A stretch of DNA of 64,000 nucleotides. Source: an uncultured Planctomycetales bacterium. GTDB lineage: Bacteria; Omnitrophota; Gorgyraeia; Gygaellales; Profunditerraquicolaceae. Of the stretch, positions 4,925-60,500 are shown one piece after another (positions within the stretch are counted from its first letter, which is position 1; every line of letters starts with the position of its first letter). Location of the stretch: positions 49,927-113,926 of the forward strand of contig CAZIUK010000002.1 in the NCBI GenBank assembly GCA_964542785.1, written 5' to 3'. Both the position numbers and the translations under genes were made by a program. The notes beneath the pieces are model-generated. The model was not told the origin of the DNA and made no database searches. It worked only from the letters and a program-made list of their open reading frames with translations.

Positions 4925-4935
4925 AATTATACTAC

Positions 4936-31498: not shown

Positions 31499-31562
31499 AA
31501 ATATTAATCATTGACCTTTGTTATTTTAGAATATAAAATGATTTCCGTCAAATCAAATTACA

Positions 31563-31645
31563 GCCGAAGTGGTGGAATGGCATACACGTCGGTCTCAAAA
31601 ACCGATGGGCTTACGCCCGTAAGGGTTCAACTCCCTTCTTCGGCA
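31563..31645 (+). tRNA. tRNA-Leu (anticodon CAA), type II long variable arm, no encoded CCA
   Basis: GCCGAAGTGGTGGAATGGCATACACGTCGGTCTCAAAAACCGATGGGCTTACGCCCGTAAGGGTTCAACTCCCTTCTTCGGCA has acceptor GCCGAAG/CTTCGGC and anticodon loop CT-CAA-AA. The variable-arm stem is GGGC/GCCC and the T-loop is TTCAACT. Confidence 0.85.
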
Positions 31646-36232: not shown

Positions 36233-36370
36233 TACAAGCTTAATTTTAGGTAACTTTAAATTTAACCGGCTACTTAAGATAAAGTTTACAACATAGACAA
36301 GTAAAAACAAGGGTAATTCGGGAATACTTTGAAAAGGGTTTCTTTAGCATTCTTCTTGCTGAATATACGA

Positions 36371-44696: not shown

Positions 44697-44708
44697 CTCT
44701 CTTCCCCT

Positions 44709-45641
44709 TTAAAGACTACCGCTAATTTTAAAGTGTATATGCCTTGTAATAAAGTTATTGGGGGTAATATCAAATGCCGGGTAATAACCCTTAGCTCCTT
44801 TTGGCGCAAGCCTTAAACCCCTATACTCTAACATCTCTTTATCCGGCCTAACCTCTATTTTTATATCACTACCACTCTTTACTCCTGATGGCGGCGGGCA
44901 GATAACATAAAAAGGGATATTAAAATGCTTTGCGGCTACGGCAATCTGGTATGTTCCGATTTTATTAGCAATATCCCCGTTTAAAGCTAAGTGGTCAGCT
45001 CCGACAATAACCTTATCAATCAACCCCTTTTGCATAACGTAAGCTACCATATTATCTGTAATCAAGGTAACGTCAAACCCGCCCCTCTTTAATTCCCAGG
45101 CAGTAAGGCGCGACCCCTGCAAATAAGGCCTGGTCTCTGTAGCAAAAAATCTTAAGGTTTTCCCCTGCTTAAGGGCGAGCTTTGCGATTAAAGGCATAAG
45201 CCCACTTATATTACAATGGGTTAAAATTGCCTCTTTATTCTTTAATAACTTTACTACATCTTCTGCCTGTTTTATACGGCTATATTTTAGCCCTTGAAGA
45301 AACTTGAATATATTTTCTTCTAAAGATTCACTGCGCTTCTGCCAGCCTAAAACCATATCGGTTAAATATTTGAAAGAAAGGGTAGGCCTCGTATTATTAA
45401 TAGCTGCGGCAACCTTAAAAAGGTCTCTTGTACCTTTCTTTTTAAGCAATTGAAGGAATATATACATTACCAAAAGAACCTGCCCTACTGCGCGCGTCTT
45501 CATATTCTTAATCGCCTTGCAAGCCTCTTTGTAATTACGCGCTTTTATATAGGCAAGCCTCTGCGGCAGTTTAGTCTCATCAAGAATATAAATAGTACTA
45601 CCCTTTAATTGAACCGGCCAGAATAAAGGAGAAAACTTCAT
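44709..45641 (-). CDS. mtnA: S-methyl-5-thioribose-1-phosphate (5-deoxyribose-1-P) isomerase, eIF-2B alpha/beta/delta family
   Basis: FATETRPYLQGSRLTAWEL and VIVGADHLALNGDIANKIGTYQIAVAAKHFNIPFYV are MtnA signatures. Confidence 0.8.
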   Translation of the reverse strand: MKFSPLFWPVQLKGSTIYILDETKLPQRLAYIKARNYKEACKAIKNMKTRAVGQVLLVMYIFLQLLKKKGTRDLFKVAAAINNTRPTLSFKYLTDMVLGWQKRSESLEENIFKFLQGLKYSRIKQAEDVVKLLKNKEAILTHCNISGLMPLIAKLALKQGKTLRFFATETRPYLQGSRLTAWELKRGGFDVTLITDNMVAYVMQKGLIDKVIVGADHLALNGDIANKIGTYQIAVAAKHFNIPFYVICPPPSGVKSGSDIKIEVRPDKEMLEYRGLRLAPKGAKGYYPAFDITPNNFITRHIHFKISGSL

Positions 45642-45648
45642 AGTATCT

Positions 45649-46422
45649 CTATTTTTCCTCTAATTTTTTAACTGCAGTTAAAGCAATAGTAAGCAAATTA
45701 GCCTCTGCCATATAATAAGCAGGATTCATAAAGCCCATCTCACCGGTAATAACATTATCGCTTACCGCTAAAATTGAACCGGCCTTAATATTATAAGTTT
45801 GCGCAATCGTAAGCAAAGCCGAAGAGACCATATCTACTGCCCTTGCCCCCTCTTTGCGCTTAGCCTCAACTATATGGCGTGTTTCGCGTAATAACGCATC
45901 CGTTGTCCAAGCTACCCCGCGGTGGATATTTAAATCCATCTCTTTAGCTACATTATATAAAGTATCGGCTATTCTTTTGTCGGATAAAGTCTTAAAACTC
46001 TCTTCAACATAATAAGGAGTGACTCCGTCCCCACGGATAACTTCATCTACAACAAAAAGATCCCCTACCTTAATATCTTCATCCAAAGACCCGGCAGTAC
46101 CAATACGGATAATATTCTCTATCCGGGCATTGCACATAACCTCCGTAGTAATAGAGGTATCCGTTGAGAATCTTCCTCCGTTTATCGCCGTAACCCTAAC
46201 CCCTTGATAATTACCGGTAAACATAGAGTATTCCATAAAGGTAAAATTCTTTATCGGATTTTCTAACTTTTTTAATAGCGTCTCAAGTCTGTCTTTTGGT
46301 CCGGGGACTATCGCATATTTGCCTACATCCTGCGGCCTTAACTGCACCATATCCGTCAAATCCTTGCCTGTTAAATGCACCTCTTTTTGCATACGCATAA
46401 GCCTAATCTCCTTATTATACAA
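45649..46422 (-). CDS. PNP/UDP-family nucleoside phosphorylase (DeoD-like; candidate MTA/5'-deoxyadenosine phosphorylase)
   Basis: IVPGPKDR, IIRIGTAGSL and AVDMVSSAL...LAVSDNVITGE align with hexameric DeoD-type phosphorylases. It is adjacent to mtnA. Confidence 0.65.
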   Translation of the reverse strand: MYNKEIRLMRMQKEVHLTGKDLTDMVQLRPQDVGKYAIVPGPKDRLETLLKKLENPIKNFTFMEYSMFTGNYQGVRVTAINGGRFSTDTSITTEVMCNARIENIIRIGTAGSLDEDIKVGDLFVVDEVIRGDGVTPYYVEESFKTLSDKRIADTLYNVAKEMDLNIHRGVAWTTDALLRETRHIVEAKRKEGARAVDMVSSALLTIAQTYNIKAGSILAVSDNVITGEMGFMNPAYYMAEANLLTIALTAVKKLEEK

Positions 46423-47332
46423 ATACCCCTTTCAATACCTCTTCTAAATTATCCCCTAAGATACACTGCTTATCTTCTTTAGGTATATCTAAACTATTAA
46501 TTGCCTGAATACTTAAGGCAAAATCTTTTTTTGCTGGATAATCACTCCCCCATAAAATACGCCTAGCCCCAAAGAGCGATAATGCCGATTGGAAATTAGC
46601 CCGCGTAGTATCTCCTGAAGTATCCACATAGATATTCTTTAAAAAATCTGTTGGGACTCCTTTTAAGTCCTTAACAAAATTAATTGAACGCAGCATCTGA
46701 TAAGTCGTATCAAACCTCCTGGCTAAAAAAGGTAACACTCCGCCAAAATAAGCAAAGATAAACTTTACTTTATATTCGCGTAGAATATCCGCCATTAAAA
46801 GTTTGCCGATACAAATTGTAGTATCAAATACATACTCAACTACCGGCGTAAGCAAAGGGTCCTCCACACGCTCGCTTCCTATGGGTTTTACAATCTGCGA
46901 ATGGACAAAGATAGGAATACCCTTCTTTTGCACTAACTTATAAATACAAAGGAATTGCTCATCATCAAGATAAACCCCGTTATAACTGGTAGCTAAAGAT
47001 ACGGCCTTAAACCCGAGCTCTTCGGTTGCGCGCTTAACTTCAGAGAGCATATCCTCTTTACAGCCAACCGGTAAAATTGCCGCACCAATAAACCTATCCG
47101 AGTATCTTTTAATTATCCTACCTACATTATCATTGAATATACGCGCAACCTCTGATAAACTTTTAAGTTTTAGGTGAGCATCGGATGTAGGATAAGATAA
47201 TACCGCTCTATCAATACCCGCCTCATCCATCATTTTAAGATGAGACTCGATATCCCCCCACCCCTTATGGTAAAAGTGGGCGTTGGTAATTATCTCTTCC
47301 GGTAGCCAATGGCTATGCGCATCAAATAACAT
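46415..47332 (-). CDS. amidohydrolase-2 (ACMSD-like TIM-barrel metal hydrolase)
   Basis: MLFDAHSHW (HxH metal site at the N-terminus), an internal His and ILWGSDYP (C-terminal Asp) follow the PF04909-type pattern. Confidence 0.6.
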   Translation of the reverse strand: MLFDAHSHWLPEEIITNAHFYHKGWGDIESHLKMMDEAGIDRAVLSYPTSDAHLKLKSLSEVARIFNDNVGRIIKRYSDRFIGAAILPVGCKEDMLSEVKRATEELGFKAVSLATSYNGVYLDDEQFLCIYKLVQKKGIPIFVHSQIVKPIGSERVEDPLLTPVVEYVFDTTICIGKLLMADILREYKVKFIFAYFGGVLPFLARRFDTTYQMLRSINFVKDLKGVPTDFLKNIYVDTSGDTTRANFQSALSLFGARRILWGSDYPAKKDFALSIQAINSLDIPKEDKQCILGDNLEEVLKGVFV

Positions 47333-47355
47333 TTCCCTGCTCCTACATATTGCCT

Positions 47356-47748
47356 TTAATGCTCTCTACTCTCTAATATTCGCTGAGTCATCTCCTTTTC
47401 ATAAAGGAGTTTTATCTCTTTTAGCCCCTTGACTCCTAATTCCTTTATAATTGCCTTTTCAAGCGCGCGAAATTTAGCGGTTAAAAAAACATAATCAGGT
47501 CTTACCTTCTTATCCTTAAATTTAAGACTTACTCCCAAAGCCTCCTTCTTAGCAACATACCTCTCGAACTCTTTTATAAAGGAAGATAGATCTTTTATGC
47601 CCTGCGTGCTTTTAAGCTCTTTTAGTATAACCCAGTCAATCTCTACTTGCGTAAACTTACGCTCAATCTTATCTACCTTTTCTTTTAAAGTTTTATAAAA
47701 CCAGATAAGGTAACGTTTTTTTAGGTTTTTAATATCTTCTTTATTCAT
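47356..47748 (-). CDS. hypothetical protein
   Basis: It is an intact 130-aa ORF in an operon context and is Lys/Glu-rich. No motif was recognised. Confidence 0.3.
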   Translation of the reverse strand: MNKEDIKNLKKRYLIWFYKTLKEKVDKIERKFTQVEIDWVILKELKSTQGIKDLSSFIKEFERYVAKKEALGVSLKFKDKKVRPDYVFLTAKFRALEKAIIKELGVKGLKEIKLLYEKEMTQRILESREH

Positions 47749-47775
47749 TCCCTCCCCCTTACATGCTATATACTA

Positions 47776-48552
47776 TCACTCACCCGGATGCTCCTGTTTA
47801 AATGGTATAACCGGCGCAGTCCAGGGGGTCTGCTGATTTATTATGGATATCTCCAATGGGCAAACATTTGCCGGAACAGTTAAAGCAAACTTAAGCGCAT
47901 CTTCTATTGCCTTAGTACTCATCAACCTAGAGGTATCTACGGTTATTTCTTTTAATTTCCCGGTTAAATCAGTATCTGTTACCCCGGGCAAAAGCGAAGT
48001 TACCTTAATACCGTAATCGCGCATCTCCCAAAATAAGCCTTTAAGAAAAGCGCGCAAGCCTACCTTTAAAGAGCTATAAACAATAAAGTTTCTCGGTAAG
48101 GGGTCACAGAGCGTTGACCCTGAAACCATATTTATAATCGCTCCTGACTTGTGCTTCAACATATCATTAATCACTAAACGTATTAAACGCACATAACCTA
48201 AATAATTAGTATAGGCCAAGCGCTCGAAATCTTCTATTGGCTGCTTTGAAAATGGGTATTGACTAGAGACCCCAGCATTATTAATCAAGATATCAATTCT
48301 ACCGAATTTATCTTTAGTTTTATTAACAAGGTTTTCTAAATCCTTAAGGCTTGTTACATCACAAGGTACGGCTAAGGCCTCAATCTTGTGTTTTAAAGAA
48401 ATCTCGTCTGCAGCCTCTTTAAGGGGCCCCTCTTGGCGGGCGGCTATAGCAATGTTTATGCCTAAACTTGCGCAGGTCTCAGCAAGGGCCTTACCTATCC
48501 CCCGACTTGCCCCAGTAATAATAGCTGTCTTTCCTTTTAAATTAACTTCCAT
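47776..48552 (-). CDS. short-chain dehydrogenase/reductase (candidate ketoreductase)
   Basis: TAIITGASRGIGKALAE (TGxxxGxG), NNAG and YSSLKVGLRAF (YxxxK) are present. Confidence 0.8.
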   Translation of the reverse strand: MEVNLKGKTAIITGASRGIGKALAETCASLGINIAIAARQEGPLKEAADEISLKHKIEALAVPCDVTSLKDLENLVNKTKDKFGRIDILINNAGVSSQYPFSKQPIEDFERLAYTNYLGYVRLIRLVINDMLKHKSGAIINMVSGSTLCDPLPRNFIVYSSLKVGLRAFLKGLFWEMRDYGIKVTSLLPGVTDTDLTGKLKEITVDTSRLMSTKAIEDALKFALTVPANVCPLEISIINQQTPWTAPVIPFKQEHPGE

Positions 48553-48564
48553 GTATCCCCCTTT

Positions 48565-49689
48565 TTATAATATTTTAGGTTTTTTGAATTTATCTAAGAA
48601 TAATAAAGATAAAAGCCCTAAACCAAAAAGAATAAACCCTAAGCTAAAACTGCGCGACATAACCAGCCCTCCAAACACCATGCCTATGCCGCCTGAGATA
48701 AAACGGATTCCACTATTTAAGCTTGCTGCTTCATTTAAAAATTCATCCGGTAAATCGGTAAGCATAGTAGCTAACCCTGCGTGGTTAAAGGTCCACCCCA
48801 ACCCCCAAACGCCCATGGTTAAGATAAGCAGGGCTAAAGGGACCTTAAATATTAATAGAATGATACTGATTATCATCAGTAATAATCCTAAATCAACGGT
48901 CTTACTTCGACCTATAGAGTCTGCAAGCGCACCCCCCCACAACTCACCGAATATACCGCTTAAAGAGGTCAAGGTTATCAACATGCTAATAGTAAATTGA
49001 TTAAGCCCAAACTCAGTAGAAAAATATACTCCCAACCACTGCTGTACGGCATGATAGATAAGGCTAATTAAGAAGATGTAGGTTAGTATCCTTAAAACTA
49101 CCCTATCCTTAAAAGCCTTAAAATAATTAAATTTCAATCCTGTTATATCATCTTTAAAACTAGGAAGCTTATAATACATAACTCCCCAGAGGACAAAACC
49201 AAAGAACGCCGGGATAATAAATATCCAACGCCAATAAATTACCCCACTTAAAAAAAGCCCCAAAAGGGAGGCGATAAAAGTAGCGCTAAAAAAAATCCCG
49301 ATATACTTCCCCTTCTTTTCTCTCTCCTGATGCTTACCGATTAGTATAAGCCCAAGGGGTATTACTGAAGCGCCGAACAACCCCATAAAAAACCTCCCTA
49401 AAAAAAGAGAGTATATATTCCAAGATAGAGCTACTAATAAATTAGCAAAAGAAAAAAAGAAGATGCAGGTTAATTCTATCCTACGCGCATCAAACCTACG
49501 CACCAGGGGGCCGTAAAAAAATGCCGCTACTCCGTAGGTAAGCATATAAACCCAGATAATCCTACCGACTAAAAACTGAGAAAGAGCAAACTCGCCCGCT
49601 ATAGAAGGTATGAGCGCTGCGGAGGCTGCGACATTAAAGGAGAGGAGCGCTCCTTCAAGACAGAAGATAAAAAAGGTTGATTTCTTCAA
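48565..49689 (-). CDS. MFS transporter
   Basis: It has 12 predicted TM helices. A GRxxDRxGRR-like loop (RRFDARRIE) follows TM2, and the size is about 370 aa. Confidence 0.7.
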   Translation of the reverse strand: MKKSTFFIFCLEGALLSFNVAASAALIPSIAGEFALSQFLVGRIIWVYMLTYGVAAFFYGPLVRRFDARRIELTCIFFFSFANLLVALSWNIYSLFLGRFFMGLFGASVIPLGLILIGKHQEREKKGKYIGIFFSATFIASLLGLFLSGVIYWRWIFIIPAFFGFVLWGVMYYKLPSFKDDITGLKFNYFKAFKDRVVLRILTYIFLISLIYHAVQQWLGVYFSTEFGLNQFTISMLITLTSLSGIFGELWGGALADSIGRSKTVDLGLLLMIISIILLIFKVPLALLILTMGVWGLGWTFNHAGLATMLTDLPDEFLNEAASLNSGIRFISGGIGMVFGGLVMSRSFSLGFILFGLGLLSLLFLDKFKKPKIL

Positions 49690-50126
49690 GAATTAGCTTC
49701 CTTTTCAATAACTCTTTTAAAAATCTGCAAATTCTCCTTGGAATGCTTATTTATAAACCCCTCTACCTCTTCATCGCTAAACTTTGCTTTGCTATCCATC
49801 TCAAAATGCTGTATCCAGGTAAGCTCTACCCCTTCGGGCCTTAAAGTATAAAGCCAGATAATCTTCATATACTTAAAAGGGAACTTAGGCTCCAGTCTCT
49901 CGGCATAAGCTAAGTGATTATCTTTAAGCAAAAGCCTCCAAGAGACCCAGGTCTTATCCTCATCGTCAGTTAAACGGAAGGTAATCTTATCCCCTTCCTT
50001 GCTTATTATCTCTGCTTTTTTATATTCCGTGCCAAACAACTCTGTCCAACGGAGAATATCATTGGATATATCAAAAACTTTTTCATAAGGCGCATTTATG
50101 ATAATAGAATTGCAAGTATGTCCCAT
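49686..50126 (-). CDS. SRPBCC (Bet v1-like) protein, polyketide cyclase/aromatase-like
   Basis: At 146 aa with the pattern INAPYEKVFDISNDILRWTELF...W..W, it is the size and type of the TcmN/ZhuI-family ARO/CYC enzymes. The call is tentative. Confidence 0.45.
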   Translation of the reverse strand: MGHTCNSIIINAPYEKVFDISNDILRWTELFGTEYKKAEIISKEGDKITFRLTDDEDKTWVSWRLLLKDNHLAYAERLEPKFPFKYMKIIWLYTLRPEGVELTWIQHFEMDSKAKFSDEEVEGFINKHSKENLQIFKRVIEKEANS

Positions 50127-50158
50127 AAGGCTCTCCTTTCTAAATTTTATTTAAAATA

Positions 50159-50959
50159 TTAAATTATCGCAACTACCCTAGACCAGGCAGCCCCGGTTTT
50201 ACGTATCCTTACCGGAAAACAGATAATTTTAAAATTAGTCGCCAACGGTAAAGCTCCTAAGTTGCTTAACCTCTCTATATGAATAAACTCTCTTTTTCTA
50301 CCGTAAAAATGCGCTGGGTAAAATTTATCCGGGTCTTTAGATTCCAAAAATTCCTTTAACATAAACCTATAAGGCCTATCTATGCCCATAGTATCCACGC
50401 CAAAAACCTTAATCCCGTTATCAATAAGAAAGTCTATCGCTGAGGTATCAATCCCGGGATAATCGGTAAAATATTTAGGGCTACCATAAAACCTATCTGC
50501 CCCTGTCCAGATAAGGACAATATCCAAGGGTTTTAAAGTATAACTAATCTTACCTAATGCTTCTTCTAAATCTCCTTTAGTTATCACCTCTGCCGGCTTC
50601 TTATGACGCAAATCTAAGCGTAAGGCATCCCAATAGCAATATTCAAGGGGTATCTCATCGGCTGTTTTAGAAGGCCTGCCTTCGGATTTAGTCCCATAAT
50701 GAAAGGAGTAATCTAAATGCGTCCCCACGTGTACCGGAGAGTGGACTATCTCTAAAGAGAGAAACTCTCCATCAGGAACATCCGAAGTTTTAAGTATTCT
50801 TTTGCCTAAAAGATAGCGAATCTTCCCCTTTAAAGTCTTCCCCATAATTACGCGGTTAAACTTTTTTACCCCCGCCTTATGGGTTATACGTTCAATATCC
50901 ACCTTGTGCACTTCAAAGGCGGTCTCATCAATGGGAAGACTTAAGTCAATTATCTTCAT
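50159..50959 (-). CDS. cyclase-family protein (PF04199 'putative cyclase'/kynurenine-formamidase fold)
   Basis: HSPVHVGTHLDYSFHYG is the HxGTHxDxxxH metal motif of this family. Confidence 0.65.
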   Translation of the reverse strand: MKIIDLSLPIDETAFEVHKVDIERITHKAGVKKFNRVIMGKTLKGKIRYLLGKRILKTSDVPDGEFLSLEIVHSPVHVGTHLDYSFHYGTKSEGRPSKTADEIPLEYCYWDALRLDLRHKKPAEVITKGDLEEALGKISYTLKPLDIVLIWTGADRFYGSPKYFTDYPGIDTSAIDFLIDNGIKVFGVDTMGIDRPYRFMLKEFLESKDPDKFYPAHFYGRKREFIHIERLSNLGALPLATNFKIICFPVRIRKTGAAWSRVVAII

Positions 50960-50962
50960 TAC

Positions 50963-51196
50963 TTAGGATTGTTTAGAGAGTATAACCTTCTCAATATCAT
51001 CAATAGTGGAAAACTTAGTAATCTCTTTTGGAGATAGTTTGATACCAAAGGCCTTCTCCAAGGAAATTATTGACTCTACCATCTCAGTTGAATCAACTCC
51101 AACTGAGTCTTGCAAAGATAAGCCATCTTTGAGCTCTTCGGGTTTTACCTTTAAGAGGTTAATCAAAACTTCTCTAATTTTAGTTTTTGTATCCAT
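50963..51196 (-). CDS. acyl carrier protein
   Basis: The 77-aa protein has SVGVDSTEMVE (phosphopantetheine-attachment DS motif, here DST in place of the canonical DSL) and an acidic helix-II. Confidence 0.7.
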   Translation of the reverse strand: MDTKTKIREVLINLLKVKPEELKDGLSLQDSVGVDSTEMVESIISLEKAFGIKLSPKEITKFSTIDDIEKVILSKQS

Positions 51197-51231
51197 AATG
51201 CGCCTCCATATATTTTAATTTCTAATTAAAA

Positions 51232-52698
51232 TTATATCTGTATTTCTCCCTTAGTAGCCGCAGCCTCCCACTTATTAATCCCATCCATAACATCCTTAAA
51301 ACAAAGCTTTGCTAAAGGGTCAAAATTACTCTCCATAATGCGGTTTATGCGCCCGGGTTTAGAGAAGAACTCACGCATACACCAAGCACCTAGGCGCCCT
51401 AGGTCTTCTATAGTTAAGTGGTCTGTAGGAATAACCGGATGCAAGAAGTCCCAAGTAGAAAAGTCAACCTTTCTAGGGTCAACCCAACCTTTCTTTAAGG
51501 CGATCCTCCACATCGGAGAATTAGGAGCCGGAGTAACGTAACCAACCCACATTATATCCGGGTCAACGCTATCGGTAAATTCAAAACGCTGTTTTATAAT
51601 CTCTTCAGTATCATAATCAAAACCCATCATGATATCGGCGACAATAGCAATATCATTTTTACGCAAAATATCTATGGTCTTTTGAATCTGCTCTAAGGTT
51701 ATCCCTTTTGCAATCTTTTTTAACTCTGACTGAGTTGTTACCTCAATCCCAAAAACTCCCATAAACAAACCGTTCTCTTTCATAATCGGGACTATTGATT
51801 CGCAATTAACCCAATCAATCGCTCTACCCAAAGAGACCCATTTAATCGGATTGCCTGATGCTTTTTTTAATTCGCAGAACTTTTTAACCCGCTCAGGGTC
51901 GACATTAAAATTATCATCCTGTATAACTACGACTTTTACCCCGTATTTCTTATGCAACAACTCTAATTCCTCCATCACTCTCTCTGGAGATTTGGCCCGC
52001 CACTTAAGGAAATCCGACGGTGAACGCGGATCAAATTGATCCCACTCATAACAAAACGTGCACGCCGAAGGACAGCCCCGGGAAGTCACCATATCCACAA
52101 AAGGCTTCCAATAAGTATGCCCGACATATTTATCCATAGGAAATAAATCATAGGCGGGTAAGGGCAATTTGTCTAAATCCTCCATCAAAGGCTTATGCGG
52201 GCCCATAACAATATTGCCATCAACGCGCGAGGTAACCCCGGCTACATCTTTTAAAGGTTTATTCTTATCAATCGCCTCAATTAAATCCCCAAATGACTCT
52301 TCCTCTGCCATAACTACAAAGTCAACCTCGGGGTTATCTTCTAAAGTAGGCACAGGCATCGCTGAATACCATAAACCTCCTAATATTATCTTTGTTTTCG
52401 GTAAAACCTTTTTAATCCCTACAGCCGCATCTTTAAAGTGGCGTAAAACGCCATATCCACCATAACCATGCAACTGCTCCCCCATAACAACAATATCCGG
52501 GTTTTTTTGCTTTACAATCTCAATAAGCTGCTCCATAGGAATCTGCTCAGCCTTGCCGTCTAAGACCTCAACATCCGAATACCCGCGCGTCTCTCTTATA
52601 TATGCTGCCCAATGCGCATAAAGTTGATTTGGCGACCTATGAATACCGTGCGTTGCCCACGCGCCTACCTTGGGCATAACAAATAGTATCTTCATCAC
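51232..52698 (-). CDS. B12-binding (class B) radical SAM enzyme
   Basis: An N-terminal Rossmann-like cobalamin-binding domain is followed by TSRGCPSACTFC (CxxxCxxC). The length is 488 aa. Confidence 0.8.
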   Translation of the reverse strand: MMKILFVMPKVGAWATHGIHRSPNQLYAHWAAYIRETRGYSDVEVLDGKAEQIPMEQLIEIVKQKNPDIVVMGEQLHGYGGYGVLRHFKDAAVGIKKVLPKTKIILGGLWYSAMPVPTLEDNPEVDFVVMAEEESFGDLIEAIDKNKPLKDVAGVTSRVDGNIVMGPHKPLMEDLDKLPLPAYDLFPMDKYVGHTYWKPFVDMVTSRGCPSACTFCYEWDQFDPRSPSDFLKWRAKSPERVMEELELLHKKYGVKVVVIQDDNFNVDPERVKKFCELKKASGNPIKWVSLGRAIDWVNCESIVPIMKENGLFMGVFGIEVTTQSELKKIAKGITLEQIQKTIDILRKNDIAIVADIMMGFDYDTEEIIKQRFEFTDSVDPDIMWVGYVTPAPNSPMWRIALKKGWVDPRKVDFSTWDFLHPVIPTDHLTIEDLGRLGAWCMREFFSKPGRINRIMESNFDPLAKLCFKDVMDGINKWEAAATKGEIQI

Positions 52699-52743
52699 TC
52701 CTCCTTCTTGGGGACACCCGTAGCTTTAATAGGTTGGATGTTC

Positions 52744-53976
52744 CTAATTAAACTTTTCTACTACTAATACTGCGTTAATTCCGCCTCTGCCGCGCGAGAT
52801 TACTAAAGCCCTATTAATCTTATATTCTTTAGCCTCTCTACTAATATAATTAAGTCCATTTAAAGCAGGTGAATCTAAATTAACTGTTGGCGGAACTAAA
52901 CCATTCTCCATCGCTAAGGTAGTAGCGATTAAATCAACTACGCCGGAGGCGCCTAACAAATTACCGAACATTGATTTAGGACAACTAACCGGAATATCTT
53001 TGGCCCTCTCTCCAAAAACATCCTTTATTGCCTCCACCTCAGAATTATCCCATAAATCAACTGCCAAGCCATCTAAGCTAATATAATCTATGTCTGAAGG
53101 GACTACTTTAGCATCTAAGAGTGCCTCCTTTATCGCCCGGGCAAGCTCTTTCCCGTCGCTTGCGCAATTTATCCGGTCAACTCCGTCACAAGTAGTCGCA
53201 TACCCTGAAATCAAAGCGAATATATTGGCTTTGCGGGATTTTGCCCTCTTTATACTCTCCATAACCACAACCCCTGAGCCTTCACCTATAACGCAACCAC
53301 TACGGCTCTTATTAAAAGGCCTGTAGGCTTGCTGGGGCTTTGAATTATCTTTGGAGAGCGCGCCATAAGTATTACAACATAAAAGCGCATAAGGAGTAAC
53401 CGGCGCTTCCATCCCCCCGGCAAGGATAAAATTCAATTTATTCTTTAATAATACTTTTTTAGCATAACCTAAGGCCATCAAAGAGCTAGCGCGATCGGCA
53501 ACGACTGTCTTTGAGAACCCCTTAATCCCATAGTAAATTGACACCTGTCCTTGCGGAGCCGCTGGAAACCACGCAGACGCCATATAAGGAGAGACCCCCT
53601 CTCTTCCTTCAATATACATATCCCTAAGCTCAGTCTCGGCGTAAAGCCACCCTCCAATAGCATTGCCTAAAAATATGCCTACTAAATTCGGATCTTCGCT
53701 TTTAATATCAATACCGGAATCTTGCAAGCTCATCTCTGCAGCAACTAAGGCCATGTGTGAAAAGACATCGATTTTCTTTAAGAGCCGCTCTGAGATATGA
53801 CTATATTTTTCTAAATCGTCAATCTGCCCGGCAATACGCGAAGGGTATTTAGAGGCGTCAAATCGAGTAATCTCTTTTATAAAAGACCTACCGCTTTTTA
53901 TATTCGCCCAAAACTGCCTCTTACCTATCCCAGAAGGAGTTACAACCCCTAAACCTGTTATTGCAATCTTATCCAC
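52744..53976 (-). CDS. ketosynthase-like chain-length-factor (KS-beta/CLF-type) protein lacking the Cys-His-His triad
   Basis: The fold is full-length KAS I/II, but the active-site position reads VVADRASS (Arg where FabF has ATACTSG Cys). The first His is absent (LDGLAVD) and the second is replaced (KSMFGNLLG, His to Asn). It has a GTG start with an AAGGAGA Shine-Dalgarno and overlaps the KS gene by 8 nt. Confidence 0.7.
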   Translation of the reverse strand: MDKIAITGLGVVTPSGIGKRQFWANIKSGRSFIKEITRFDASKYPSRIAGQIDDLEKYSHISERLLKKIDVFSHMALVAAEMSLQDSGIDIKSEDPNLVGIFLGNAIGGWLYAETELRDMYIEGREGVSPYMASAWFPAAPQGQVSIYYGIKGFSKTVVADRASSLMALGYAKKVLLKNKLNFILAGGMEAPVTPYALLCCNTYGALSKDNSKPQQAYRPFNKSRSGCVIGEGSGVVVMESIKRAKSRKANIFALISGYATTCDGVDRINCASDGKELARAIKEALLDAKVVPSDIDYISLDGLAVDLWDNSEVEAIKDVFGERAKDIPVSCPKSMFGNLLGASGVVDLIATTLAMENGLVPPTVNLDSPALNGLNYISREAKEYKINRALVISRGRGGINAVLVVEKFN

Positions 53977-55231
53977 TATATCTCCTTAATATCAATGAAG
54001 AGTGTATCCCGGAAAAACCACTACTAGTTTTTAAAATAGTATTTACTTTTTTTTCTATCGCTTGATTCGGTATATAATACAAATCACACTGCGGGTCCTT
54101 CTCCTCCTGATTGATTGTAGGAGGCAAAAGGTTTTTTTCAAAAATCATTGAGGCAATAGTCATCTCAATTGCGTTTGCCGCTGCCAAAGGATGCCCAATC
54201 ATAGACTTAAAAGAACTAATGGGTAAGCTATAAGCATACTCTCCGAAAATCTCCTTATAAGCGCTTGTCTCAAATATATCATTCATCCGGGTTGATGAGC
54301 CATGCGCGTTTATATAATCAATCTCTTTTGACTTAATCCCTGCGTCTTTAAGGGCTAAAGATATACAAGTCTCCATCGCCTGCCCATCGGAAGGAAGGTC
54401 GGTCATATGAAAGGCATTGCAGCTTGTACCAAATCCTAAAACCTCGCAATATATAGGCGCGTTACGCTTTAAGGCATGGCCTAATTCTTCTAATATCAAA
54501 ATACCTGCTCCTTCTGAGAGAACAAATCCGTCACGCTTATTATCAAACGGACGAGATGCCTTTTGCGGATCATCATTATGCACGGATAAAACATTTACTA
54601 CGTCAAAAGCACCAAAGGTTATCGGTGTAATCGGCGCCTCCGCTGCGCCACAAATCATAATATCACACTCTCCATCTTGAATAGACTCTAAACCAAACCC
54701 CAAAGAGTCTGTCCCAGCAGTACATCCTGTTGAAAGGGTGCTACAACTTCCTCTTAACTTATATTTAGAGGATAACTCTATAGAAGGAGTATTAAACATC
54801 GCAGCGTCATAAAGATCAGGACGTACCTTTGAAGGATCTATGGGATTCTTCCCATCATCTGTAACAAGCGCAAACTCCTCCTCCATATACTTTGTCCCGC
54901 AGATAGCATTAGCCAAACAAACCCCAATACGCCTAGGGTCTTCTTTATTAAAATCCAAACCGCTATCCTTTACTGCCATATCTGCAGCAACTACCCCGAA
55001 TTGCACATACCTATCCATGCGCATAGCCTCTTTATGAGTTAAACCCAATTTAAAAGGGTCAAAATCACGTACCTCTGCGGCAATCTTGGTATTAAATATA
55101 GAGACGTCAAACCCATCAACGCGCTCTACCCCAGACTTACCTGATACAAACCCCTCCCAAGCAGATTTCTTCCCTATGCCGTTAGGAGATATAACCCCTA
55201 TGCCTGTAATAACTACTCTGCGTTTATTCAT
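53969..55231 (-). CDS. beta-ketoacyl-ACP synthase (active KS-alpha/FabF-like)
   Basis: STGCTAGTDS (active Cys), NAHGSST and KSMIGHPLAAA (both His) are present. The start is moved to the ATG at 55231 (MNKRRVVITGIGVIS); the track start is TTG and overlaps the upstream gene. Confidence 0.8.
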   Translation of the reverse strand: MNKRRVVITGIGVISPNGIGKKSAWEGFVSGKSGVERVDGFDVSIFNTKIAAEVRDFDPFKLGLTHKEAMRMDRYVQFGVVAADMAVKDSGLDFNKEDPRRIGVCLANAICGTKYMEEEFALVTDDGKNPIDPSKVRPDLYDAAMFNTPSIELSSKYKLRGSCSTLSTGCTAGTDSLGFGLESIQDGECDIMICGAAEAPITPITFGAFDVVNVLSVHNDDPQKASRPFDNKRDGFVLSEGAGILILEELGHALKRNAPIYCEVLGFGTSCNAFHMTDLPSDGQAMETCISLALKDAGIKSKEIDYINAHGSSTRMNDIFETSAYKEIFGEYAYSLPISSFKSMIGHPLAAANAIEMTIASMIFEKNLLPPTINQEEKDPQCDLYYIPNQAIEKKVNTILKTSSGFSGIHSSLILRRYSG

Positions 55232-55235
55232 AAGA

Positions 55236-55835
55236 TTATCTTTTCTCCTCGTCAATCCTCGTTACCTTAAAGACTATATTCCCTCCATCAGGACAAGTGA
55301 CTGTATCTATTGAATTAGGGTCTTGCATGAAGAAAAATTTTGCCCCGAAGTTTAATGCAAAGAGCGCCGGAAAAGCGCAATGAAAAGCAGCCCCGCAAAA
55401 ATTTGGGATAGTCTTTAACCCTTGCGTCTCCCACCTATCCCCTACTTTATACCCATAAGAACATTTGCCCTTAGCCTTAACTACTTCAATAATCATCTTT
55501 TTAGGGTTTGGGCCCTTATGCCTTAAGTCCTTAGCGACAAACTCTACATTCCCCTGCTTGTCAAGTATCTCTGCTTGAAACTCCAACTTACCTCCGTCAG
55601 GGCAGGTAACCAAAAGTGACCTCTGGTTTTCTCTAAACCCGAATTTTGCCCCAAAACTTAAAGCATAGATAACCGGGAATAAAGCATGCGCTAAACCTAA
55701 ACAAAAATGCTTTGGAGGATGGGTAAAATCTTCTAAGATAATCTCATCCCCCTTTTTATAGCCATGGTAGCATTCGCCAAATACATTAGTTACGGTTAAC
55801 TTTAATTTAGGAAAGGGCGTCTTAACTTCTCTCAT
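55236..55835 (-). CDS. tandem-duplicated Cys/His-rich domain protein (two TIGR04076-like ~95-aa repeats), probable metal-binding, function unknown
   Basis: Repeat 1 is GECYHGYKKGDEI...HFCLGLAHALFPVIYALSFGAKFGF...VTCPDGGKLEF. Repeat 2 is GKCSYGYKVGDRW...NFCGAAFHCAFPALFALNFGAKFFF...VTCPDGGNIVF. Confidence 0.4.
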   Translation of the reverse strand: MREVKTPFPKLKLTVTNVFGECYHGYKKGDEIILEDFTHPPKHFCLGLAHALFPVIYALSFGAKFGFRENQRSLLVTCPDGGKLEFQAEILDKQGNVEFVAKDLRHKGPNPKKMIIEVVKAKGKCSYGYKVGDRWETQGLKTIPNFCGAAFHCAFPALFALNFGAKFFFMQDPNSIDTVTCPDGGNIVFKVTRIDEEKR

Positions 55836-55836
55836 T

Positions 55837-56844
55837 TTAATTTAAATACTCCTTTACGTTTTCTAAAAACTCGTCCTTATTTAAAAACCTTCTACTCGTC
55901 TCAACCTGATGAACCATACTGACTAATCTACTATTAAGCCCAGCGGATAAATTACTCTCTTTGGCTAAAGAGACAAACTCTCCGTTTATGAAATCTACCT
56001 CTGAAAGCCTATTGCGCTTTATACTCTGCAGGATAGACCCGTATAAAGCCTCTTTACTTAACTTTATCATCATCCCTGAATATATCCTTGCTGCCTCTTC
56101 TAAGGGGATAGAGATAAGTTTAGTTATATTCTCTAAAGGAAACCCCGGAAGAGAAGTAAGCCTGATACCTGATTTTGATATAATATCAAAACCTTCCCGC
56201 AAAATGTTAATACTTACCCTGCTTACCATTATATCAGAAAAAGCCTCCTGCATACTTATCCCCAGTATAGCAGGGATACAATTATTGGCATTTACAAAAA
56301 TCTTTAAGTATTTCATCCCTATTATATCTTCGCTTATAACGACAGGAAAGGCCTTATCTAAAGCTTTACTTAACGCAACTATTTTTTCATCTATACTACT
56401 ATTTGAAAGCTTACCTAAAATCCAACTCCCTTCAAAATTATGCACCACCTCTGCGGGCTTAAGATAAGTAGAACCAAACATAACAATGCTTGGAATAATA
56501 TTCTCTACAGGAAGATATTTAGATACAATCTTTTCCGCCTGAACTCCGTTTTGAGTAGTAATGATAATAGCGTTTTTAAACAACTCTAAATTACTCTCTA
56601 AGGCTCCCTGAATATCCTGCGTCTTAGTCGCTAAGACTACCACCTCTGCAAAAAAATCTACCTTCTCCTCTATAGGAATATCTACCTTAAAATTACCCCT
56701 TACCCCGGATATACTTATCCCTTTTTTGCGTATAGCAGTAATTGAATCACCCCGGCCGATTAATAATACATCTTCCCCTTTTAACTTAAGATACCCTGCG
56801 ACCAAAGCGCCGATTGCACCTGAACCAATGACTGTTATTCTCAT
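55837..56844 (-). CDS. 2-dehydropantoate 2-reductase (ApbA/PanE) family NAD(P)H oxidoreductase
   Basis: ITVIGSGAIG (Rossmann), VVLATKTQD and the C-terminal SILQSIKRNRLSEVDFINGEFV block are the PanE signature. Confidence 0.65.
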   Translation of the reverse strand: MRITVIGSGAIGALVAGYLKLKGEDVLLIGRGDSITAIRKKGISISGVRGNFKVDIPIEEKVDFFAEVVVLATKTQDIQGALESNLELFKNAIIITTQNGVQAEKIVSKYLPVENIIPSIVMFGSTYLKPAEVVHNFEGSWILGKLSNSSIDEKIVALSKALDKAFPVVISEDIIGMKYLKIFVNANNCIPAILGISMQEAFSDIMVSRVSINILREGFDIISKSGIRLTSLPGFPLENITKLISIPLEEAARIYSGMMIKLSKEALYGSILQSIKRNRLSEVDFINGEFVSLAKESNLSAGLNSRLVSMVHQVETSRRFLNKDEFLENVKEYLN

Positions 56845-56847
56845 GAT

Positions 56848-57108
56848 TTAAGACTTAGGGAAGCCGTATTTCTTATAATCAAACCCGGTTTGCTCTAGGA
56901 GCCTTACCATTAAGCTATAAAATGGTGAAGGGACCCCGGAGAAAAAAGCAGATACTACATCCTGCTCCTCCACGTAAACAGACTCTCTCTTCCTTGCGCT
57001 CTCTTCAGCTGTCCTAACTACTACCTCTTCGGTAATACGACGGTGAAATAAGGGCATTTTTGAGATAAATAACTGAAACTTCTTCTTTGTGTTTTGGTCC
57101 CAATTCAT
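56848..57108 (-). CDS. small PCP_red-like (ChlB C-terminal-domain-like) protein, tentative
   Basis: MPLFHRRITEEVVVRTAEESARKRESVYVEEQDVVSAFF resembles the P-F-F-V-R...E..AR.RG...I..E.....A.F pattern of the protochlorophyllide-reductase 57-kDa C-terminal domain. The ribosome-binding site is weak. Confidence 0.3.
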   Translation of the reverse strand: MNWDQNTKKKFQLFISKMPLFHRRITEEVVVRTAEESARKRESVYVEEQDVVSAFFSGVPSPFYSLMVRLLEQTGFDYKKYGFPKS

Positions 57109-57124
57109 AATTCAATAACTAAAC

Positions 57125-57190
57125 TTAGTTAACCTAATATAGTAAAATTTTACTATATTAATGACAAGATTATTTTATAGTCATTGATAC
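57125..57190 (-). promoter_or_regulatory. sigma70-like promoter (-35 TTGACA, 17-nt spacer, -10 TAAAAT) followed by a 26-bp perfect palindromic operator
   Basis: Minus-strand reading gives TTGACA at 57190-57185 and TAAAAT at 57167-57162. The palindrome TAATATAGTAAAATTTTACTATATTA (57125-57150) lies between the -10 and the first start codon at 57108. Confidence 0.4.
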
Positions 57191-57305
57191 TGTCTGTCAA
57201 GGAATTTTGGGATTCTTAAAACTTAAAGAGAGGTAAATCCTATAACCAAAACTTTTCCAAGAAAACAGATATATTTAAGTAGGTAACCTATTAATGGTTT
57301 GATCT

Positions 57306-57596
57306 TTAAGCTACCTCTTCTAGAGGCAAGACAAAGGCCTTTATCCCTTCATGACTACTCTTACCCTTTAATTCCTTTATCTTAACAAGCATCTCTTTTA
57401 ATTGGCTATCCTGACAGGCTATATAAAGAATATTATTTAGCCCCGGCCAAATATCCGTTCCAAGATGCGTTCCGCTTGTCTCTCCGCAGCCAAAGACTCC
57501 AGAGGTCTTAGTGTAACCTTTTACCTTTGCTTCATCTAGTATCTCCATTACTTCGTCATCCAAAACTTCATTATATACGACCATCAGCATTTTCAT
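57306..57596 (-). CDS. PII-like (GlnB-fold) small protein coupled to the RND pump
   Basis: It is 96 aa. The predicted beta-alpha-beta-beta-alpha-beta pattern and the GxxG loop (GVFGCGETSG) resemble PII-like proteins. It overlaps the RND stop by 4 nt. Confidence 0.4.
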   Translation of the reverse strand: MKMLMVVYNEVLDDEVMEILDEAKVKGYTKTSGVFGCGETSGTHLGTDIWPGLNNILYIACQDSQLKEMLVKIKELKGKSSHEGIKAFVLPLEEVA

Positions 57597-60500
57597 GATA
57601 CCCCCTCTTTTCTAAACGCCTTTTTACGGTGAAATACCGCATAAAGAGTAGGGACTAGAAGCATAGTAACAAAGGTAGATACCGAAAGCCCGCTTATCAT
57701 AGTAATCCCTAAAGGCTGCCAAGTCTCAGAGCCTGAGCCGCGCGATAAGGCCAAAGGCAGAAGCCCTACTAACGTAGTTATCGTCGTCATAAGCACAGGC
57801 CTTAACCTATCCTTTCCTGCGGAAGTTACTGCCTCATACATAGAAAAACCTCGGGCGCGCAATATATTTATATAACTTATCAAGACAATCGCATTATTCA
57901 CAACTATACCCATAAGCATGACTATGCCTAAAAAGGTATTAATACTTAAATATGTCCGAGTAAGAACAAACCCGAGTATTACCCCTACAAAGGTAAATGG
58001 TATAGAAAACATTACAATAAAAGGGTCAAGCAAAGACTCAAACTGCCCAGCCATAACCATATAGACTAAGACTATGCCTAATATAAGTAGCAGGGTTAAA
58101 TCCTTAAACGCCTTCTGCTGCTCCTCTACCTCCCCGCCAAAACTAACAATAATATCAGGAGGAATTACGATTTTACTTAATTCTTTTTTTAAATCCTCTA
58201 CAATCTTGCCCGGAGAACGCATATAAGTATTACATTCAACGCTTACTACTCTCTCTCTATTTTGACGCTCTATTGTCTCAGGCCCGCTTGTTTCATAAAT
58301 CTTTGCTACGTTACTTAATCTAACTAACTTTCTAAGGTTGTTTTTTACATTATAAGTAGCTGCCTCCACCCGGGCAAAAGGGACATTCTCTTCAGGCAAA
58401 GGAGGTATAATAAAAAGGTTGTCTAAATCTTCTAATTTTGAGCGTGAGGATTCTTCAAGCCTTACATATATATCATAGGTCTTGCCTTTCTCTCTATACT
58501 TTGTAGCAGTTGCTCCCTGGATATAGGCCTTTAATGTCTCTGAAACTGTATGCATATCAAGCCCAAGGCTAGATGCCTTCTCCCTATCCACATCAATCCT
58601 TAATTCCGGACGATTTGCCTCACGGGATACGCTTACATCAACTGCCCCGGGAATCTTCTCTAAAATTAACCTTATTTTTTCAGCTAAGGCATCCGTCTCT
58701 TCAAAAGAGTACCCTACAATATCTAATTGCACCCTTTTCCCCCCGGTACCGGCAATCATCTTACCTAAAGGGCTTCCTGTGGTTATGTCCGTCTTTAGAA
58801 CTCCAGGAATAACCTTAATTTTTTCCCTGACTATCTGGCCAATCTCTTTAGAAGAGCGCTTCCTCTCTTCCTTTGGTATCAACCTAGCGCCCGCAGAGAT
58901 AATATGTGTCCCGGAAGCTCCTCCCATAAGCCTTCCTACTCCGGTCATTGTCCCACTTCTAGAATAATAAAATTTTGCTTCTGGGATATCTACTTCTAAT
59001 ATCTCCTCTATCCTCCGAGCTACCTTATCCGTCTCCTCAACCCTAGTCCCTATGGGTAAATACACCGTAAGCCTAATATCCCCGGAATCTTCCTCAGGGA
59101 CAAACTCACTTCCTACCAAGGGCAAAAGCATCAAACTAAAAATAAACGCTCCGATAAATCCTATAAGAATAAGTTTTTTATGGTTTAAGCAAAAACCTAA
59201 AGTCTTGCCGTATAAGTTCTCCCAGTTAACAAACCATTTTTCAGAGACCTGATATAATTTAGACAAAAAACCGGCTTTTCTTTCTTTAATACGCAAGAAT
59301 TTTGAACAGAGCATAGGAGTAAAAGTAAGGGAGGTAAATAAAGAGGCAATTAAAGTTACTGAGACTACCATCGCCAAAACCCCAAACATAATCCCTATTA
59401 CCCCAGGGATAAAGAGCATCGGTAGGAAGACTACTAATGTAGTTAAAGTAGAGGCACCTATCGCTAGAAAAAGCTCTGAGGTCCCAAATATCGCTGCTTC
59501 AGATGGACGATTACCGCGTTCAATCTTACGATAAACATTATCTACAACTACAATAGCATTATCTACAATCATCCCAGTAGCAATAGCCAAGGATGATAAA
59601 CTTATAACATTAATCGTCCCCTTACTTAAAAATAGGTATATAAATGCGGCTAAAAGAGAAAAGGGAAGTGTCAATGCAATTATCAAGCTTGGGGTAAACG
59701 CCCTTAAGAAAAACCAGACGACCAAAATAACTAATACTATGCCTACCCAAACCGAAGATTTAAGAGAATCAAGCGATTCAATAATATTCTGTGAGGTATC
59801 AAATATAATATTTAATTTTACATCGGCAGGGAGAACTTTTTCTACTTCCTTAAGCTTATCTTTAACGCGCCCGGCTACCTCAACTGTATTGGTCCCGGTT
59901 TGCTTTTGAACCATAAGCATAATCCCGCGTTTTTTATTAATACGAACGTATCCTGTCTCTTCCTTAAAGCTATCTTCAACCCTTGCCACATCTTTTAAAT
60001 AAATTAGCCTATTGTTGCGCTTACCGAGAATTAATAAATTAATCTCTTCAGGCTTGGCAAATTCACCGGGGAGTCTAATAAGATAATCTGTTAACCCGGT
60101 CTTTAAATTCCCCACCGGCTGGGTTATGTTTTCATACTTTAGCTTGTTTTTAATATCAAGTATAGAGAAACCATAACTCTCTAAGCGTTGTCTATCTATC
60201 CAGATATTTATCTGCCGCTCCAACCCTCCTCCTTGAATCTGCACTGTCCCTACACCAGGAATCTGCTTTAATACGTCGCCTATTCTCTTATCTACGATAT
60301 CATAAAGGTCAGGGTAACTCTGGTCGGCAGTTACTCCGATATAAATAATGGGGATATTGGCAGTATTAAACTTAAATATCATCGGGTTATCCATCTCTTC
60401 GGGAATATCCGGTAAAAATCTCTTTGCCCTATCTATCCTATCGCGGATATCATTTGAAGCCTCATCAAGATTTGTCCCCCAAATAAACTTTAATCTTATA

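Follow-up and report, generated by a model that had tools for sequence, protein, structure and literature searches.

The 64,000-nucleotide stretch of contig CAZIUK010000002.1 analyzed here (the window) carries on its minus strand a tightly packed block of about 17 genes (about 15 kb, positions 42214 to 57200). In our reading, to which we assign a probability of roughly 0.72, this block encodes a type II aromatic polyketide pathway that needs no oxygen, belongs to the ancestral, non-actinobacterial kind and is fixed in the Omnitrophota; the reading is drawn from gene content, phylogeny and gene order. The host is a Candidatus Omnitrophota bacterium: the matches of the catalytically dead ketosynthase (KS) of the block bear Candidatus Omnitrophota or Omnitrophica names, and more than 120 clusters (90% identity) reach at least 80% identity to this protein. 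Hundreds of Omnitrophota species keep the block with little change, and it therefore probably makes an important small molecule. Its genes, numbered g01 to g17 from upstream to downstream, and the preceding promoter match are as follows.

57172 to 57200, minus strand: sigma-70-like promoter match TTGACA-17-TAAAAT (consensus match only, 11/12), in the 197-nt intergenic gap upstream of g01
56848 to 57108, minus strand: g01, predicted 86-aa accessory protein of the radical S-adenosylmethionine (SAM) enzyme (weak DUF2621 match only, E = 0.003)
55837 to 56844, minus strand: g02, ApbA/PanE-like NAD(P)H oxidoreductase (PF02558 and PF08546; TIGR00745 at 160.9 bits)
55236 to 55835, minus strand: g03, tandem TIGR04076 protein (103 bits versus a cut-off of 33, two stretches) with three invariant Cys per domain in the alignment
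53969 to 55255, minus strand: g04, active KS of the KS-alpha type (Cys/His/His intact; PDB matches and tree)
52744 to 53976, minus strand: g05, catalytically dead KS, chain-length-factor (CLF) partner (Arg/Asp/Asn replace Cys/His/His)
51232 to 52698, minus strand: g06, B12-binding radical SAM enzyme, BchE/HpnJ-like (PF02310 and PF04055)
50963 to 51196, minus strand: g07, acyl carrier protein (ACP; PF00550 at 37.8 bits; GVDSTE serine motif)
50159 to 50959, minus strand: g08, PF04199 cyclase, OxyN-like (97 bits)
49686 to 50126, minus strand: g09, monodomain TcmN-type aromatase/cyclase (SRPBCC, Polyketide_cyc2; TcmN structure match)
48565 to 49689, minus strand: g10, MFS transporter (PF07690 at 138 bits)
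47776 to 48552, minus strand: g11, short-chain dehydrogenase/reductase (SDR; PF00106 at 167 bits and a KR-domain match)
47356 to 47748, minus strand: g12, clade-specific 130-aa protein, no family found (in 55 of the 80 related loci described below, median identity 51%)
46415 to 47332, minus strand: g13, Amidohydro_2 protein (PF04909), resembling aromatic-acid decarboxylases
45649 to 46422, minus strand: g14, nucleoside phosphorylase/nucleosidase (PNP_UDP_1, PF01048), overlapping g13 by 8 nt
44709 to 45641, minus strand: g15, MtnA-like sugar-1-phosphate isomerase (IF-2B family, PF01008)
43695 to 44696, minus strand: g16, class II aldolase (PF00596 at 114 bits) with an SCP2-like C-terminal extension
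42214 to 43698, minus strand: g17, aldehyde dehydrogenase (PF00171 at 538 bits; 4-nt overlap with g16)

Judged from residues, scores and phylogeny, g04, g05 and g07 are the predicted KS-alpha, CLF and ACP of a polyketide synthase (PKS) of type II. The original prediction had described such a minimal trio (an active KS, a coupled KS paralog lacking Cys/His/His and a discrete ACP), and the residues, the gene overlap and the PF00550 match all agreed with it. The catalytic Cys/His/His/Lys set of g04 is kept in the motifs TGCTA, NAHGS and IGHPL; its probable start is the ATG at 55231, giving 420 aa like its relatives, rather than the TTG at 55255. The GTG start of g05 overlaps the stop of g04 by 8 nt. 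Among solved structures, g04 scored highest with the actinorhodin KS (1tqy_A, 379 bits) and AntD (6smo_B, 372 bits), and the best FabF reached 350 bits. A neighbour-joining tree (25 sequences, 100 bootstraps) placed g04 in a KS-alpha clade with ClrA, AntD and ActKS (bootstrap 100) and g05 in the CLF clade with ClrB, a Ktedonobacter CLF and other CLFs (bootstrap 100). KS-alpha and CLF together were split from FabF with a bootstrap of 88, the FabF clade itself having 100, which places both proteins outside FabF. An exhaustive search for relatives of g05 over 50%-identity representatives returned many giant type I PKSs; the nearest single-domain relatives were a family labelled "Deltaproteobacteria" (57% identity), a Clostridium beijerinckii/puniceum protein (46%) and a Ktedonobacter protein (40%). 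All of these nearest relatives lack the catalytic Cys, and most have a 'DRAS' motif (Arg for Cys), which g05 has in common with ClrB.

The cyclases point in the same direction as the ketosynthases. The best PDB matches of g09 were the TcmN aromatase/cyclase structures 2rez/2rer (94.5 bits, E = 5e-26), other solved polyketide cyclases (3tl1, 3tvr and 2kf2) matched nearly as well, and the WhiE aromatase/cyclase was also matched; the earlier suspicion that the SRPBCC protein is a polyketide cyclase was thus borne out. The PF04199 'putative cyclase' call for g08 held as well, both at Pfam level and through 44.5% identity to the cyclase of a Clostridium type II PKS cluster. For g13, the nearest solved structures were LigW, ACMSD and the gamma-resorcylate and 2,3-DHBA decarboxylases. 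Pfam and NCBIfam further confirmed the two reductases (one SDR and one ketopantoate-reductase-like), the single Amidohydro_2 protein and the single MFS transporter. Domain scans with Pfam and NCBIfam detected no hotdog dehydratase, enoyl reductase, ammonia-lyase or O-methyltransferase in the block, in line with the earlier statement that dehydratase, ammonia-lyase and O-methyltransferase genes are missing.

KS-CLF-ACP-TcmN-OxyN has been described as the "ancestral" architecture of aromatic type II PKSs (Ishida et al., PMC7693217). Since the core of the block is this published architecture, the claim that the gene set matches no known class had to be given up, while the description as a KS/CLF/ACP type II PKS-like cluster of a non-actinobacterial genome with an uncharacterised product was upheld. 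The kind of system is known already, and the Omnitrophota version is a distinct, elaborated variant of it. A type II PKS locus of Clostridium beijerinckii and C. puniceum is very probably the clr locus of clostrubin, since it comes from both known clostrubin producers (Pidot 2014 and Shabuer 2015, as cited in PMC7693217). Its genes run in the order KS, CLF, TIGR04076-ACP fusion, PF04199, SRPBCC and, later, Amidohydro_2, and the identities to the window are 45% (KS), 46% (CLF), 46% (TIGR04076), 44.5% (PF04199), 40% (SRPBCC) and 34% (Amidohydro_2), with a weak partial match for the ACP (35% over 54 aa, E = 4e-5). The two loci thus have seven counterpart genes in similar order and an Arg-for-Cys 'DRAS' CLF in common, and the Clostridium host is a strict anaerobe. 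However, a B12-radical SAM enzyme, an ApbA-like reductase, an SDR and a phosphorylase/isomerase/aldolase module, all present in the window, are missing from the Clostridium locus, which instead contains phosphopantetheinyl transferases, KSIII, hydrolases, DUF362 and DUF169. Its TIGR04076 protein is a single domain fused to the ACP, whereas that of the window is tandem and separate from the ACP, and it is limited to a few species, whereas the window block has a phylum-wide distribution.

Other ancestral non-actinobacterial PKSs (AQ-256 AntD/E of Photorhabdus, dendrubin and pyxidicycline) likewise combine KS-CLF-ACP with TcmN/OxyN cyclases; by published description they have a duplicated TcmN-TcmN, in contrast to the monodomain SRPBCC protein of the window, and their products are known as anthraquinone-type pigments (PMC7693217). 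The Streptomyces actinorhodin and tetracenomycin systems provided the best solved-structure matches of the window KS (1tqy_A) and SRPBCC protein (TcmN), and they have a heterodimer-type KS/dead-KS gene pair in common with the window, but g05 is no closer to ActCLF than to FabF. To our knowledge, actinobacterial CLFs have Gln at the Cys position, where g05 has Arg, and tailoring in actinobacterial type II PKS systems relies on oxygenases and SAM methyltransferases, not on B12-radical SAM enzymes. KS-CLF pairs from Ca. Omnitrophica are already contained, without description, in a 2023 catalogue (PMC10132072), and antiSMASH surveys have labelled unspecified Omnitrophota clusters "ladderane" or "aryl polyene" (PMC9902471, PMC13635244).

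The conservation of the block was followed in one genome per GTDB species with an alignment of the radical SAM enzyme as the query. Relatives of g06 turned up in at least 553 species genomes, of which the best 80 (81 to 93% identity) were compared in detail. Up to the contig ends, the block genes of all 80 related loci follow the order of the window; the gene set therefore recurs as a tightly linked block and not as scattered genes, which answers the neighbourhood question raised by the original prediction. The most conserved gene is g06, with a median identity of 88%, followed by the KS (83%), the tandem TIGR04076 protein (82%) and the SDR (81%). The dead KS and the phosphorylase (79% each) and the SRPBCC protein (76%) come next, then the PF04199 protein (74%), the ACP (71%) and the Amidohydro_2 protein (70%), while the corresponding values for neighbouring genes are 68.5% (aldehyde dehydrogenase) and 70% (PlsC). 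The block is also kept in a complete Omnitrophota genome of 1.5 Mb (locus L089). Omnitrophota are an uncultured phylum with ultra-small cells, reduced genomes and possibly host-dependent lifestyles.

Of the best 80 loci, 77 are labelled Omnitrophota or, evidently wrongly, "uncultured Planctomycetales"; the remaining three are an unclassified "bacterium" metagenome-assembled genome (MAG; L052), a 2.5-kb contig labelled "Deltaproteobacteria" (L082) and a duplicate locus. Public labels and content disagree in many SPIRE/binchicken MAGs, which are named 'uncultured Planctomycetales' (L009, L018, L022 and others) and have a near-identical Omnitrophota block. Some MAGs (L082, L091) are called 'Deltaproteobacteria bacterium' despite an Omnitrophota-type block. 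We consider these labels unreliable, because L091 has Omnitrophota-type flanking genes and L082 is just the 2.5-kb contig, and we doubt that L005 and L091 prove a spread to 'Deltaproteobacteria'. L086 and L087 are two contigs of one MAG (CAZOGI01) whose block matches lie at identical positions, probably an assembly or binning duplication and not a true second copy.

The 13 co-directional open reading frames (ORFs) of the original prediction (46415 to 57190) were all found on the minus strand at these positions, and nearly all of the domain calls were reproduced by Pfam and NCBIfam. The layout required two corrections. The genes had been called mostly overlapping; overlaps occur at only 4 of the 12 junctions, the others being gaps of 1 to 45 nt. 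In addition, the cluster does not end at 46415, as tight packing continues beyond g13 through four further genes, joined by overlaps or gaps of at most 12 nt, down to 42214, making the unit larger than 13 genes. The best sigma-70-like site between 43 and 58 kb precedes g01, in agreement with the proposed promoter, but such sites are in total no more numerous than expected by chance. The GC content of the region is 38 to 43%, and riboswitches and other Rfam elements are absent from the 64-kb window. The small gene g12 had no match in L005, L089 or L090. A CBM_11-like gene of 203 aa lies between the SDR gene and g12 in 36 of the 80 related loci (e.g., L002:16579-17190); it is absent from the window, where the spacing between these two genes is just 27 nt.

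The tandem Cys/His-domain protein of the original prediction turned out to be a tandem TIGR04076 protein, well above the cut-off, and its median identity was calculated across 61 loci. The same family is fused to the ACP in the Clostridium cluster (L007:11260-11787) and in a Bacillota MAG (P0423), and a 1165-aa ORF of L089 (576-4073) joins AFOR, ApbA and two TIGR04076 domains. Single TIGR04076 genes stand beside KS/CLF or cyclase genes in two uncultured anaerobes whose tailoring genes differ from those of the window: L095 has ApbA, two single TIGR04076 genes, a related core, Amidohydro_2 and amine oxidases, and L096 has a related core, four unrelated B12-radical SAM enzymes, LuxC/E and a TIGR04076 gene ahead of the cyclases. 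A homologue search with the Clostridium TIGR04076 domain gave two matches only, and the full-length AF2 model of the TIGR04076 protein was poor (pLDDT 54). The location beside or fused to ACP or KS/CLF in several ancestral type II PKS clusters gives this orphan family its first functional context.

To this PKS core the block adds the radical SAM enzyme with its attendant genes. The class B assignment of g06 was confirmed by an N-terminal B12-binding domain (PF02310, 35.2 bits; cut-off 32.1) and a radical SAM core (PF04055, 76.6 bits) with the CxxxCxxC residues C209/C213/C216. The further suggestion that such enzymes are typically C-methyl or alkyl transferases is unproven for g06, since the nearest families, BchE and HpnJ, are not methylases. 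The best NCBIfam models were BchE (196.1 versus a cut-off of 481.35) and HpnJ (160.1 versus 577.6), both below their cut-offs, and relatives with solved structures are remote. BchE (the anaerobic Mg-protoporphyrin cyclase) and HpnJ (a hopanoid cyclitol-ether radical SAM enzyme) have the same domain order, B12-binding first and radical SAM second, whereas the genomic context of g06 is unrelated to chlorophyll or hopanoid synthesis. The small protein g01, earlier called PCP_red-like, gave no PCP_red match. It is present in 54 of the 80 related loci, and we regard it as a partner of the radical SAM enzyme because it is fused to the radical SAM C terminus in L089 and directly follows the radical SAM gene in L090.

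The genes g14 to g17 are collinear in the 80 related loci, again as far as the contigs reach. The isomerase, aldolase and aldehyde dehydrogenase genes also adjoin the radical SAM and PKS genes in three gene orders besides that of the window. The module comes after Amidohydro_2 in L005 and after the radical SAM gene and Amidohydro_2 in L089, while in L090 and L091 it precedes the radical SAM gene and has an acyl-CoA ligase at its head. L089 has no phosphorylase, and locus L005 stops short of any dehydrogenase. A dehydrogenase of the g17 type follows the aldolase in the window, in L089, L090 and L091, and in 23 of the 80 loci; the aldolase with an SCP2-like extension recurs in L005, L090 and L091. 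In the dihydroxyacetone phosphate (DHAP) shunt, which removes 5'-deoxyadenosine, an inhibitory by-product of radical SAM enzymes (PMC8102628, PMC10986504), the same three families (MtnP or MtnN/K, MtnA and Ald2) act in the order of g14 to g16, followed by an aldehyde-oxidising enzyme. This agreement in families and order with a shunt that clears the radical SAM by-product is the ground for reading g14 to g16 as salvage genes, and removal of 5'-deoxyadenosine is most likely the reason for the linkage. The module differs from the shunt in that g14 is not MtnP, g16 has the SCP2-like tail, and the whole sits inside a PKS/radical SAM cluster and travels with it. Among the NCBIfam matches listed for g14 there was no MtnP; Udp and DeoD were closest, below every NCBIfam cut-off, with a weak similarity to HpnG/futalosine hydrolase. 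The isomerase g15 passed TIGR00524 (210.8; cut-off 185.85) and stayed below the MtnA equivalog (225 versus 279). The aldolase g16 is generic (103 versus a salvage-family cut-off of 203), and its SCP2 score is borderline (20.7 versus 21.3).

Taken as a pathway, the block would work as follows. The ACP would be malonylated by the housekeeping FabD, and KS/CLF would assemble an unreduced poly-beta-ketone on it. The TcmN-like protein would close and aromatise the first ring and the PF04199 protein a later one, after which the Amidohydro_2 protein may remove the terminal carboxylate and the SDR and ApbA-like enzymes may reduce carbonyls. The B12-radical SAM enzyme, together with g01, would then tailor the scaffold anaerobically, through C-methylation or through an oxidation or cyclisation of the BchE kind, and release 5'-deoxyadenosine. 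The latter would be turned by g14 to g17 into adenine, DHAP and acetaldehyde or acetate in the manner of the DHAP shunt, and the product would be exported by the MFS transporter and, in this lineage, perhaps also by an adjacent RND pump. In such a block, tailoring would proceed without oxygen, a B12-radical SAM enzyme doing the work of oxygenases, and would be physically coupled to the removal of 5'-deoxyadenosine. Its compact size of about 15 kb suits heterologous expression.

Several observations weigh against an aromatic polyketide pathway of this kind. Domain scans found neither a malonyl transferase nor a phosphopantetheinyl transferase in the 64-kb window. TcmN-type cyclases act on unreduced chains, which makes it hard to assign roles to the two reductases, the SDR and the ApbA-like enzyme. 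For the reaction of g06, methylation is just one option, and the salvage reading of the module has to accommodate g14 and g16 scores under the salvage-family cut-offs and an unexplained SCP2-like tail. The family scores of the ketosynthases are ambiguous as well: g04 lies above the cut-off of the broad NCBIfam subfamily 'beta-ketoacyl-ACP synthase II' (NF005589, 446.7 versus 387) and only narrowly below that of the FabF equivalog TIGR03150 (459.8 versus 493.75; g05 reached 366.1), and g05 reaches 281 with FabF but only 247 with the actinorhodin CLF, a ranking also seen for ClrB, the probable clostrubin CLF. Finally, an aromatic type II PKS cluster is as a rule a scattered, strain-specific locus for an antibiotic or a pigment, and the phylum-wide collinearity at about 80 to 90% protein identity is unlike such sporadic antibiotic clusters. 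This last point would suit a pathway with the same chemistry that makes a core metabolite, an aromatic redox cofactor or quinone head group for most Omnitrophota and not an antibiotic or toxin, which we consider a serious alternative, though a rather unlikely one. It would explain collinearity in 80 of 80 species-level genomes, a radical SAM relative in at least 553, retention in the 1.5-Mb genome of L089, and identities of the radical SAM, KS, TIGR04076 and SDR proteins (88/83/82/81%) that exceed those of the neighbouring aldehyde dehydrogenase (68.5%) and PlsC (70%). Many Omnitrophota have a 4-hydroxybenzoate polyprenyltransferase without a chorismate lyase, and an alternative source of the aromatic precursor has been suggested (Seymour et al., PMC10066038). 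However, the block contains an MFS exporter, often adjoined by an RND pump, it has no prenyltransferase, and the TcmN-type cyclases point to a polycyclic product of at least C16 rather than to a benzoate. The conservation itself points to a molecule central to Omnitrophota biology, such as a redox carrier, a compound for attack or defence or a component of the envelope.

A role of g14 to g17 in biosynthesis itself appears doubtful to us. Here the radical SAM enzyme would graft a 5'-deoxyadenosyl group onto the substrate, as MqnE and HpnH do, and the module would trim it to a two-carbon acid side chain or a PKS starter by removing adenine, isomerising and cleaving the ribose and oxidising the aldehyde, comparable to the MqnE/MqnB and HpnH/HpnG pairs. 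The module stays beside the radical SAM gene through different gene orders, g14 is not MtnP and weakly resembles HpnG/futalosine hydrolase, g16 remains below the salvage cut-offs and bears an SCP2-like hydrophobic-ligand domain, the module begins with an acyl-CoA ligase in L090 and L091, and aldehyde-level AFOR and ApbA-like reductase are fused or adjacent in L089 and L005. Yet the adenosylating radical SAM enzymes known to us have no B12 domain, the isomerase passes an MtnA-related subfamily model, the SCP2 score is borderline, and by-product salvage is the simpler account of the linkage. A still broader idea, which we likewise hold to be improbable, sees in the block not a dispensable antibiotic cluster but a primary pathway that defines the phylum: the radical SAM enzyme and g01 would attach an adenosyl-derived unit, and g14 to g16 with an aldehyde dehydrogenase or AFOR would trim it to the side chain or starter of an anaerobic aromatic polyketide cofactor, e.g., a new quinone, with TIGR04076 as a new ACP-associated PKS component. 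An unusual lipid pathway, in which a KS/CLF-like heterodimer and the ACP make an acyl chain that the radical SAM enzyme modifies, has an apparent model in the ladderane-associated cluster of anammox bacteria with its amxFabF2/amxFabFmut heterodimer, amxACP and radical SAM enzymes (bioRxiv 10.64898/2026.05.19.726425) and FabZ variant (PMC10139942). The KS, dead KS, dedicated ACP and radical SAM enzyme in an anaerobe and the core-like, lineage-wide distribution are common to both, phylum-wide conservation would suit a membrane component, and 'ladderane' clusters have been reported from Omnitrophota by antiSMASH surveys (PMC9902471). In the window, however, cyclases of the TcmN and PF04199 types take the place of dehydratase and enoyl reductase. 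The anammox pair (9s5h_B/C) matched the window KS at 274/214 and the dead KS at 209/181, in both cases less well than FabF, and g06 reached only 63.9 bits on the ladderane-type model TIGR04072 (cut-off 360), scores too low for membership in the ladderane family. Omnitrophota and anammox Planctomycetota both belong to the PVC lineages; the anammox cluster has, as far as we know, dehydratases of the fatty acid synthase type and no polyketide cyclases. We therefore regard the lipid pathway as very unlikely. That the two KS genes are mere housekeeping FabF paralogues is scarcely credible: g04 does pass the broad FabF-like subfamily cut-off, relatives are named 'beta-ketoacyl-ACP synthase family protein' and AccA lies upstream of the block in relatives, but both proteins fall outside the FabF clade (bootstrap 100), both stay below the FabF equivalog cut-off and g05 has lost all three catalytic residues. 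No fabD, fabG, fabZ or fabI neighbourhood is present, domain scans found no fab genes in the window, and the neighbours are polyketide cyclases; FabF paralogues were ruled out on these grounds. The aryl-polyene-like interpretation of the original prediction, and flexirubin with it, was rejected on gene content, as the 17 genes include no dehydratase or ammonia-lyase domain and instead polyketide cyclases.

Upstream of the block, the window contains a regulator and an efflux operon.

57306 to 63355, minus strand: efflux operon of MarR, OEP, HlyD, RND and P-II-like genes, possible accessory export, directly upstream of the block
63458 to 63970, minus strand: PadR-family regulator; in relatives, the gene that usually stands directly upstream of the cluster

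In the window, the efflux operon thus sits between the PadR regulator and the cluster. Upstream of g01, roughly 26 related loci have PadR and AccA genes, generally no more than about 0.4 kb away, and about 15 of 54 have P-II-like and RND genes, mostly at 0.1 to 0.7 kb. The PadR and MarR-RND genes are circumstantially consistent with a phenolic product.

Elsewhere in the window, a second radical SAM enzyme, without a B12 domain (4936 to 5946, minus strand), is packed together with a HAD-type phosphatase and a class-III aminotransferase (2847 to 5946), and an arginase-like protein gene adjoins this group, which may form a small pathway of its own. The release factor 2 gene (18383 to 19505, minus strand) has the classical programmed +1 frameshift site AGA GGT TAT CTT TGA C at 19448 to 19433, and the ORF list shows only its downstream frame of 335 aa. 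A 1507-aa HEAT-repeat protein with no other recognisable domain is encoded at 31787 to 36310 (minus strand), adjoined by divergent tRNA-Ala and tRNA-Leu genes at 31423 to 31645. Nearly all real genes of the window are on the minus strand, and the GC skew is negative in 32 of 32 bins of 2 kb; from this uniform skew and gene orientation we infer that the window lies within one replichore with its genes co-oriented with replication.

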